A stretch of 64,000 nucleotides of DNA from positions 3,863 through 67,862 of the forward strand of contig DAOUBS010000004.1 in NCBI GenBank assembly GCA_034432435.1, in the 5' to 3' direction. The notes beneath the pieces were generated by a model, which saw nothing but the letters and a program-made list of their open reading frames with translations, searched no databases and was not told the origin of the DNA. This DNA is from Anaerolineae bacterium (GTDB taxonomy: Bacteria; Chloroflexota; Anaerolineae; Aggregatilineales; Phototrophicaceae). Shown in pieces: positions 615-1,835 of the stretch (positions within the stretch are counted from its first letter, which is position 1; each line of letters starts with the position of its first letter). Made by a program: the position numbers and the translations under genes.

Positions 615-1835
615 ATGATGCAGCTTTGGGAGGCTGTGACGAGTGAATTCAACCATTTGGGCAGGCGTATACGAGGACTCGCCATGATTAGCCGTGGGAT
701 CGTACCGAATTTGATCATCGCTCAGCGCGTGGTAGACCGTGTGGTGGAGGCGGCCAAGCACTACCTCGCAGATGAGACCGGTGAGACGATGGTGGGATTC
801 GTCGTGCCAGCGGAAAACACCCCCGAAAGCATGCCGACGCTCTACGTCCTAGACACCATCAGCCCTGACGAGAACGCCATCCGCCGCTCGCACATGTTCG
901 AACAGGGCGATGAGCTTCAACAAGACATCTTCTTCTGGCTTTCGGACAACTGGGAGACCTGCCGAGAAACAGGCAAAGACTCGCGCGGGCGGCCCATTCA
1001 TCCCAGATGGAACCAGCCGCTGCGCCACATGGGCGATTGGCACAAGCAGCCCGGCTTCATGATCCAGCCCTCCGGCGGCGACTTGATGACAGCGCTGCGC
1101 TTCATGGAGGATGAGGAAAACAATTTTGACTTCTTGCTCGTCCCGATTGTGACGTTGGGGCATGACTCTGTCACCAATGAGGACGGCGCGCAGGTCAATT
1201 ATTTCACTGTGCCGCTGGCTGATGGCACCAGCCTCCGCATGGACTGGTGGTACATCCACCGCGACAGCCGTTTCTTTCAGCCGATTACCCCCCGCATCGT
1301 CCCCAATGAGCAGCTCCCTGAGCTAACGCCCTACCCGTGGCACATCCTTGATGAAGACCTTGTCAACGATGAACTGGACATTTTGGAGGTCAACGGCTAC
1401 TTCCGCATAGGCGATTTTGTGCTGTGGAACACGGACGACAAGCCGCCGCTGGAGATCTGCTTCATCATCGGGCGGCCCGGCACGAGCCAAGTCTACCTCA
1501 TCGTCACCGATTGGGACTACCCCAACACGCGGCCACGCCTCTACCTAAGCCAGTTCCAAGGCATCGACCCATCGATGTACATCTACGACATCTGGCAGCG
1601 CCTGTGGCAGCAGCGCACCCCCCCGCCGTCGCTCAGCTTCCGTTGGACGGAAGAAACCTTCGTGGTGGACTTGATCAAGGCCGTCGAGACAGCGCAGGGG
1701 ATAGCGCATCCCACGCCGCCCGGGGCCAAATCATCAGCCAATGGCCCCGTGCGCATCCCCGTACAGGTCGAAGAGAAGAAGATTGTACGCCCCACCCCCC
1801 CTACCAATGAACCCGCAAAGGACGATGTGGAATGA
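615..1835 (+). CDS. JAB/MPN-like putative deconjugating peptidase with a C-terminal UEV/RWD-like (Cys-less E2-like) domain
   Basis: Starts 6 nt after the E2 stop. The N-terminal half has ETGETMVG (conserved Glu) and DWHKQPGFMIQPSGGD (nt 1035..1082), resembling the JAMM motif HxHx7SxxD with D for the first H and a 9-residue spacer. Residues ~245-362 repeat a beta-strand pattern plus DYPNTRP (nt 1518..1535), like the E2 gene, but contain no Cys. Confidence 0.6.
   Translation: MMQLWEAVTSEFNHLGRRIRGLAMISRGIVPNLIIAQRVVDRVVEAAKHYLADETGETMVGFVVPAENTPESMPTLYVLDTISPDENAIRRSHMFEQGDELQQDIFFWLSDNWETCRETGKDSRGRPIHPRWNQPLRHMGDWHKQPGFMIQPSGGDLMTALRFMEDEENNFDFLLVPIVTLGHDSVTNEDGAQVNYFTVPLADGTSLRMDWWYIHRDSRFFQPITPRIVPNEQLPELTPYPWHILDEDLVNDELDILEVNGYFRIGDFVLWNTDDKPPLEICFIIGRPGTSQVYLIVTDWDYPNTRPRLYLSQFQGIDPSMYIYDIWQRLWQQRTPPPSLSFRWTEETFVVDLIKAVETAQGIAHPTPPGAKSSANGPVRIPVQVEEKKIVRPTPPTNEPAKDDVE

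Follow-up and report, generated by a model that had tools for sequence, protein, structure and literature searches.

The stretch of DNA analysed here (the window) comprises 64,000 nucleotides from an Anaerolineae bacterium (assembly GCA_034432435.1, contig DAOUBS010000004.1, positions 3,863 to 67,862 of the forward strand), and at its left end three co-directional genes encode an E2-like protein, a JAB-domain protein, and an E1-like protein, in that order. The first gene (135..608, plus strand) has a GTG start and encodes a ubiquitin-conjugating (UBC)-like E2 of 157 aa, as identified by PADLOC E2 models and conserved residues. After a 6-nt gap it is followed by the gene that is the subject of this report, which appears among the listed open reading frames at 615..1835 (plus strand, stop codon included) and encodes a protein of 406 aa. 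This gene overlaps by 4 nt the E1 gene (1832..2743, plus strand), the product of which (303 aa) has a ThiF/MoeB-type adenylation domain and two CxxC pairs, as recognised by Pfam and PADLOC. The middle gene encodes a two-domain protein, referred to here as JAB-UBC, in which a variant JAB/MPN domain (residues ~27-237; 693..1325, plus strand) is joined to a non-catalytic UBC fold, and it is translationally coupled to a ThiF-type E1 and preceded by a cysteine-bearing E2. The JAB-UBC protein probably belongs to an uncharacterised protein-tagging system. Its public gene call (P0125) begins at M24, giving a protein of 383 aa. However, the 23 residues before M24 (window 615-683) are kept in relatives and are modelled within a long N-terminal helix with a value of ~85 in the predicted local distance difference test (pLDDT), and a start at 615, 6 nt past the E2 stop codon, is therefore more likely than one at M24.

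The fold of the N-terminal domain is that of MPN proteins. An AlphaFold2 model of the whole protein has a pLDDT of 89.6 and a predicted template modelling score (pTM) of 0.84, and its JAB domain (residues ~25-237) is matched by 290 chains at a structural Z score of at least 8. The Rpn11 homologue of Caldiarchaeum (6fno_B) has a Z score of 16.8 over 148 aligned residues, the root-mean-square deviation (rmsd) being 2.3, and further matches include yeast Rpn11 (Z 16.4), CSN5 (15.7), BRCC36 (15.1), and Cap3 (9ild, 14.4). CSN6 and Prp8 also match structurally at a Z score of ~13. Foldseek gives an E value of 1.8e-7 for this domain, and PADLOC JAB models match the protein at 1.2e-6. Other sequence models give little: Pfam assigns no domain to the whole JAB-UBC protein, a phmmer search of the whole protein against PDB sequences returns no match, and NCBIfam yields a sub-threshold match only, to ICE_VC0181 (Cap3-type). 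The family is small: of 1.84 billion representative proteins scanned, 124 match at E<=1e-3. Its database members are all labelled 'hypothetical protein', none having a Pfam domain. For the wider family, 56 full-length diverse relatives were aligned, and E54, G61, W108, H143, S153, D156, and W242 are invariant in all 56. Additionally, a protein of 1453 aa (P0090) has 12 separate stretches that match the region of the JAB motif (query residues 86-157) and, to judge from its sequence, may carry repeated JAB-like segments.

The metal-binding motif of the JAB domain departs from the canonical one, as had been stated in a preliminary description of this DNA, but not in the manner proposed there. Translation of window positions 1035..1082 (plus strand) in the frame of the 406-aa protein gives DWHKQPGFMIQPSGGD, and the string D-W-H-x9-S-G-G-D noted in that description is indeed present. 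It had been interpreted as a JAMM motif with Asp in place of the first His and a spacer lengthened by two residues, an interpretation that proves to be off by two residues. In the alignment of the 56 relatives the family consensus at this site is GDWHKHPGxMxxPSxxD, which the profile of the same homologues pairs with GEWHTHPEDFPHPSFID of Cap3 (9ild), that is, G-E-W-H-T-H-P...P-S-F-I-D, and also with GvYHSHPDHPARPSATD of the MPN protein 2kcq. Because of this profile alignment to Cap3 and MPN sequences, the aligned register of the motif is H143-x-Q145-x7-S153-x2-D156, with H143 as the first His and Gln at the position of the second His. The full variant site is thus D141-W-H143-K-Q145-x7-S153-G-G-D156. 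The H-x-H pair of metal ligands is incomplete (H143 is present and residue 145 is Gln), whereas the spacer between residue 145 and S153 has the canonical length of seven residues and the x7-S-x2-D part is intact. The catalytic Glu upstream is also present: E54, aligned with the general base of the JAMM motif and located in an ETG segment (774..776, plus strand), is found in all 56 members of the wider family.

Conservation of the altered site was assessed in two sets of sequences, the wider family and the 120 closest 90%-identity clusters, in which overall identity goes down to ~45%. In the wider family, position 145 is His in 37 of 56 relatives and Gln in 16, including the present protein. 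In the close set, E54, D141, H143, S153, and D156 are each found in 120 of 120 clusters, and Q145 in 119. Since the motif is fixed in the close clusters even though their identity falls to ~45%, and since distant relatives keep HxH, the aligned sequences indicate that the altered metal site descended from an active site and is being maintained by selection, not decaying. The DxH pair pointed out in the preliminary description is likewise a conserved element. Beyond the 120 close clusters, which all have both D141 and H143, position 141 is Asp in 41 of the 56 wider relatives and His or Glu in nine more, and Cap3 has Glu there alongside an intact HxH. By alignment, D141 can be regarded as an extra conserved acidic residue, placed two before the first His, and as a feature of the family.

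The distribution of residues at positions 141 and 145 bears on a different reading of the site, in which D141 and H143 form the metal-binding pair and Asp took over as third ligand in the Gln145 clade. The 19 of 56 relatives that lack His145 all have Asp or His at 141, while His145 is retained in every relative that has Ile, Leu, Tyr, or Asn at 141. Similarly, a distant subgroup has G-H-S-H at positions 140-143 and no conserved His at 145. However, profile alignments set H143 on the first His of both Cap3 and MPN proteins, and the Glu of Cap3 at the D141 position coexists with its complete HxH. D141 also occurs in 27 relatives that retain His145, and it is hence older than the change from His145 to Gln. 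The covariation, moreover, is among related sequences, which are not statistically independent. An Asp ligand of this kind is therefore considered unlikely.

A second reading holds that the JAB domain is an MPN-minus pseudo-enzyme without zinc, which would act as a scaffold or reader and bind the modifier through its MPN and UEV-like domains. Q145 replaces a metal ligand, and the fused UEV-like domain (see below) is likewise a non-catalytic binding module. There is also precedent in MPN-minus domains such as that of Prp8, which retain substrate affinity without activity (PMC3431379). Yet known MPN-minus domains lose several motif residues, whereas here E54, H143, S153, and D156 are invariant and Q145 is kept in all but one of the 120 close clusters. 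Two further observations, both described below, also speak against a dead enzyme: in a small protein encoded beside the three genes in related loci an invariant end is followed by a variable tail, so that some peptidase is implied to trim it, and the one other JAB protein that the genome was found to encode belongs to a separate MoaD/MoeZ cluster. A pseudo-enzyme is thus a serious possibility, but we judge it the lesser one.

The C-terminal part of the protein was modelled both within the whole protein and as a separate domain. In the AlphaFold2 model a helix (residues 247-259) is followed by four strands (263-271, 280-286, 292-298, and 308-313) and two helices (323-332 and 350-361), and this order of elements, helix, four strands, two helices, is that of the UBC core fold. 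The four strands correspond to the segments FVLWNT, LEICFIIG, QVYLIVTDW, and DYPNTRPRLYL, which the preliminary description had picked out as short hydrophobic strands. The domain-only model (residues 236-372, from an alignment of 68 relatives) has a pLDDT of 95.1 and a pTM of 0.88. The domain itself (residues ~242-362; 1338..1700, plus strand) is delimited by this model, fold searches, and hhalign. Beyond it lies a Pro/Lys/Glu-rich low-complexity tail (residues ~366-406; 1710..1832, plus strand), which is predicted to be disordered, pLDDT in the whole-protein model being below 50 at residues 374-393; the length and sequence of the tail differ between relatives.

Fold searches with the domain model consistently return UBC-fold proteins at the top, in agreement with the E2-like domain suggested in the preliminary description. 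Foldseek gives matches at E>=0.1 only, of which nine of the ten best-ranked are related to E2, UEV, or RWD domains. When its top 1000 matches were re-aligned, 232 chains reached a Z score of at least 5, among them Ube2W (Z 8.1, 97 residues aligned, rmsd 3.3) and the UEV domain of Tsg101 (Z 7.9, 109 of 137 residues). A search independent of Foldseek, covering 48,161 chains, found 52 chains at a Z score of at least 5, which are UBC-fold proteins and include the central domain of FANCL (7.8), Ube2W (7.6), the Tsg101 UEV domain (7.4), the bacterial E2s BubB (6.6), Cap2 (6.2), and BilB (5.2), and the RWD domain 2dax (5.2). Vps23 matches the domain at a Z score of 7.1. In both the re-aligned Foldseek set and the Foldseek-independent search, the top 50 matches are all E2, UEV, RWD-type, or other RWD-like domains. 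Sequence signals are weaker. None of 37 domain sequences matches Pfam RWD, UEV, or UQ_con at E<=1, and the ESM Atlas returns nothing for residues 236-372; a profile of the 56-member family has a weak match to the E2 structure 3we5 (E 0.32). When the domain is compared with the operon's own E2 by hhalign, the stretch from helix 1 to the YP motif comes out in register (P=0.002, 13% probability), a weak profile similarity that speaks neither for nor against a recent duplication of the adjacent E2.

Two features of the domain, one present and one absent, suggest what kind of UBC fold it is. The first is a YPxxxP motif between strands 3 and 4 (Y302-P303-x3-P307; 1518..1535, plus strand), which we take to be the RWD signature. 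P303 and P307 are found in 120 of 120 close clusters and Y302 in 116, and the motif is also kept in the 56-member alignment. In the profile-profile alignment it falls on the YPNRP segment of the adjacent E2, so that the likeness between DYPNTRP and that E2, to which the preliminary description had drawn attention, is borne out as a conserved motif in register. Additionally, T298 (120/120), E253, and W242 are conserved in the domain. The second feature is the loop that follows strand 4 in catalytic E2s and holds their His-Pro-Asn segment and catalytic Cys. Here, strand 4 is linked to the next helix by nine residues (314-322) with no His-Pro-Asn and no Cys, and therefore this loop is absent. According to the models, the C-terminal domain is a non-catalytic UBC fold of the UEV/RWD-like type. 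The earlier characterisation of it as a cysteine-less E2-like domain thus holds for the UBC/UEV/RWD fold and the missing HPN/Cys loop, but not for the statement that it has no Cys at all: C282 (1458..1460, plus strand) occurs in 111 of 120 close clusters. This residue is buried inside strand 2 (LEICF), away from the catalytic position of E2s, and is not conserved in the wider-family consensus.

A third reading is that the domain is a cryptic second E2, with the modifier carried by a residue other than the canonical one, as it is by serine in Bub E2s. C282 and T298 are both highly conserved, and the cysteine-less 'inactive' E2-like proteins of Bub operons were found to be active through a serine oxyester (PMC11601596); one Bub E2, BubB, is among the structural matches given above (Z 6.6). 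However, the whole loop that bears the catalytic residue in E2s, BubB included, is absent here, with only ~9 residues between strand 4 and the helix. C282 also lies within a strand and is not conserved in the wider family, and a canonical Cys-bearing E2 is encoded next door. A catalytic role of this kind for the domain is therefore highly improbable.

The neighbouring E2 is of the canonical, Cys-bearing kind. Its catalytic pair H88...C96 lies within KHQYEDGQLCLF, with a YPNRP flap at residues 69-73, and PADLOC E2 models recognise it at 7.5e-15; Pfam UQ_con and RWD matches are sub-threshold only. In an alignment of 33 related loci, H88, C96, Y69, and P70 are invariant, as are an N-terminal W-W-G-T stretch and a C-terminal Y-Y-T-W-R...W-P-G-x-E-E-R stretch. 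E2 identity is 63-97% in 31 of these 33 loci. Where the JAB protein is ~35% identical, the E2 is still 63-72% and the E1 ~57% identical, and the sequence of the E2 suggests that it may have many constrained interaction surfaces. The E1 is the sole member of the trio that is recognised by Pfam (ThiF, 1.4e-34); it also matches PADLOC E1-E2 models at 2.3e-29, and its C159, C162, C264, and C267 are invariant. In one metagenome contig (L093:1247-3472) the JAB-UBC and E1 sequences occupy one open frame with no stop codon, although this is a single contig and a sequencing error is possible. This in-frame fusion and the 4-nt overlap of the JAB stop and E1 start suggest that the JAB-UBC protein physically associates with the E1. 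At one distant locus (L090:3413-4262), the JAB-UBC gene and the E1 are separated by an insertion of two small genes (82 and 224 aa). Predicted complexes of the E1 (two copies), the E2, and the UBC-fold domain gave ipSAE values of 0.01 and 0.00, which, without controls, argue neither for nor against an association.

The flanks of the trio hold other functions. The window begins 3.9 kb into its contig (C4), and the genes upstream of the trio encode a histidine kinase, a TPR protein, and a 249-aa S-adenosylmethionine (SAM) methyltransferase; no ubiquitin-like (Ubl) gene lies upstream of the trio on this contig. Downstream, on the opposite strand, is a PMT_2-type membrane glycosyltransferase. A reading frame ending ...TDG just 5' of the E2 gene (window 1-134; L003:3142-3891) was considered as the missing Ubl and rejected, because it is the end of the 249-aa class I SAM methyltransferase, and other genomes do not keep it next to the trio.

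Relatives of the trio were sought by a pattern scan with one genome per species, which found 293 genomes with a relative, nearly all labelled Anaerolineae, Aggregatilineales, or Phototrophicaceae, and 80 loci were kept. The E2, JAB, and E1 genes are adjacent in 78 of the 80, and the other two loci are interrupted by a contig end. Metagenome contigs that encode distant relatives, of the H-x-H clade, have this trio around them as well. Within the class, the genomes sampled comprised 8 of the own family, all of which have the JAB protein, and 292 of other families, in none of which it was found; a phylum-wide sample outside the family gave local matches to the JAB motif only. The trio is a chromosomal, single-copy cluster, and its presence in every sampled genome of the family points to vertical inheritance. 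Being found in all sampled genomes of one Chloroflexota family, it resembles a housekeeping function of the lineage more than a defence island. Neither the window's own genome, which is 97.5% complete, nor the flanking regions in related loci yielded a SMODS CD-NTase (PF18144), and the trio has no effector gene beside it. Similarly, no beta-grasp Ubl gene is found beside the trio in the 80 genome loci and 12 metagenome loci.

The sole PF02597 (ThiS/MoaD-type) match in the genome is on another contig (C111), beside a second, MoeZ-like E1. It belongs to a separate cluster of the sulfur-carrier type (C111 ~10279-12152 and 14881-15231; L116 and L118). The E1 of this cluster is a 413-aa MoeZ-like protein with a rhodanese domain, and a 232-aa protein has an N-terminal MoaD-like beta-grasp ending ...IAGG, with a predicted membrane domain after it. 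The only other JAB detected in the genome, a canonical Prok-JAB, is 3 kb away within the cluster.

A tiny conserved gene lies directly 3' of the E1 gene in 43 related loci, ten of which belong to the distant H-x-H clade (for instance L013:6162-6413 and L090:5295-5594, with 40 other loci). In the window's own genome it is located outside the window, on contig C45 (3925-4146, minus strand; equal to L125:1498-1722), and in a complete genome of the same genus it is ~205 kb from the trio. Of 40 genomes sampled in the family, all from different genera, 39 have the small protein, as do 32 of 32 high-quality genomes, the present one included. Its N-terminus is acidic and variable; an almost invariant core follows, ~55 residues long, which includes R-L-G-G-E and P-E-E-F-A-R-L-Q and ends R-K-R-R-A-W-Y, and the last part is a tail of 0-7 residues that varies and is ARH in the protein of this genome. 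No Pfam family matches the small protein. Because an invariant end is followed by a variable tail, its sequence looks like that of a peptidase-trimmed precursor. Judged by gene neighbourhood only, this protein is the best candidate for the substrate of the JAB domain, and possibly for the ligand of the UBC-fold domain.

In ~30 loci the small protein is accompanied by a PCMT-family methyltransferase (protein isoaspartyl O-methyltransferase, 1e-49) with an extra C-terminal domain and by a Nudix-like gene (L125:321-1508, minus strand, and L125:1-321; L005:4665-6544; L090:5601-7753). Since a small residue comes after a conserved Asp in the small protein, one may speculate that this protein is a substrate of the methyltransferase.

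Overall, we favour, with modest confidence, an explanation in which the JAB-UBC protein combines an active (iso)peptidase of variant site with an adaptor domain, and in which the small protein is the modifier. The JAB domain would remain a working (iso)peptidase with a modified H/Q/D metal site, perhaps together with D141, as far as the conserved residues can tell, and it would trim the modifier, remove it after attachment by the E1 and E2, or do both. The modifier would most likely be the small protein that follows the E1 gene in related loci. The UBC-fold domain may then serve as an adaptor that holds the modifier or substrate near the active site, as UEV domains hold ubiquitin; alternatively, it may dock the peptidase on the E1 or E2 by mimicry of an E2.

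Several points weigh against this explanation. Gln is a poor zinc ligand and the change of His to Gln is a standard way to inactivate JAMM enzymes, so that the enzyme could be dead; a BRCC36 QSQ mutant structure is among the Foldseek matches of the JAB domain. The Z scores of the C-terminal domain, at 5-8, are 'middling' by the tool's own scale, and no sequence model (Pfam, PDB phmmer, or Atlas) recognises it. The UBC fold is assigned despite these scores because of the uniform list of matches, the topology, the YPxxxP motif, and the two weak sequence signals. The small protein is tied to the JAB domain by gene neighbourhood and co-occurrence only, and the residue after the conserved WY of the small protein is not always Gly or Ala. 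It is a bolder proposal, and one we hold to be doubtful, that the trio and the small protein represent a new kind of bacterial tagging altogether. In such a system the tag would be a conserved, Pfam-less module of ~55 residues ending RKRRAWY, the H-x-Q JAB domain would expose its C-terminus, and the UEV-like domain would hold the tag or dock on the E1 or E2, replacing the ubiquitin-binding insertions of JAMM enzymes; the whole would serve housekeeping in the family and not phage defence.

To our knowledge, the bacterial E1/E2/JAB systems that have been studied so far, namely type II cyclic oligonucleotide-based antiphage signalling systems (CBASS), Bil, and Bub, are sporadic phage-defence modules. 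The present trio differs in that it occurs in every sampled genome of one family, has no ubiquitin-fold gene, and includes a trimming enzyme that is doubly unusual, in that His has given way to Gln, as a fixed change, at one metal ligand and in that a UEV/RWD-like domain is fused to it. An active peptidase would mean that the JAMM site tolerates a different set of ligands. Should the UBC-fold domain recognise the tag or dock on the E1 or E2, bacteria would have in it a counterpart of the E2-variant adaptors that are thought to be typically eukaryotic, and it would also offer a handle on what this orphan conjugation system modifies. As the preliminary description had supposed for the fusion of the deconjugating enzyme with a UEV-like domain, the literature searched yielded no account of this trio or of a JAB joined to a UBC-fold domain.

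The trio is neither CBASS, Bil, nor Bub, although it shares features with each of them. Type II CBASS is the closest in sequence, as models derived from Cap2 and Cap3 in PADLOC are the best sequence models for all three proteins of the trio. Cap3 (9ild) matches the JAB domain and shares with it the G-[D/E]-W-H start of the motif, and CBASS operons likewise have no beta-grasp Ubl, their enzymes acting on the C-terminus of a non-Ubl protein. In contrast, Cap2 is a fusion of E2 and E1, whereas the two are separate genes in all loci examined here, and Cap3 has ~150-160 aa, whereas the protein described here has 406 aa, a fused UBC-fold domain, and Gln in place of the second His. The genome also has no SMODS CD-NTase and no adjacent effector, and the trio is present throughout the family sampled instead of being sporadic or mobile. 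Membership in CBASS was therefore rejected, as no CD-NTase is found in the genome.

With Bub (6E) and Bil (6C/6D) the trio shares the operon logic of E2, JAB, and E1, and the JAB-E1 fusions of BubCD are comparable to the JAB-UBC-E1 fusion of contig L093. An 'inactive E2/RWD-like' domain, either free or fused to a Ubl, was described in 6e operons by Iyer et al. 2006 (PMC1779556); such domains were later found to be active through serine, as mentioned above. However, the RWD-like domain of those operons is not fused to the JAB protein as it is here, and Bil and Bub systems have beta-grasp Ubls, often capH/capP regulators, and a sparse distribution, while no beta-grasp gene is present in any inspected trio locus. 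Among eukaryotic proteins, the MPN-minus members (Prp8, Rpn8, and CSN6) resemble the JAB domain in having the MPN fold with an incomplete metal motif, but here a single ligand is changed and the remaining motif is invariant. Similarly, the C-terminal domain resembles its closest structural analogues, the eukaryotic UEV and RWD domains (Tsg101/Vps23, Mms2/Uev1a, the central domain of FANCL, and GCN2-type RWD), in having a UBC fold that lacks the catalytic Cys loop and a YPxxxP motif between strands 3 and 4. It differs from them in having no detectable sequence relationship (no match to Pfam RWD or UQ_con) and in its fusion to a peptidase.

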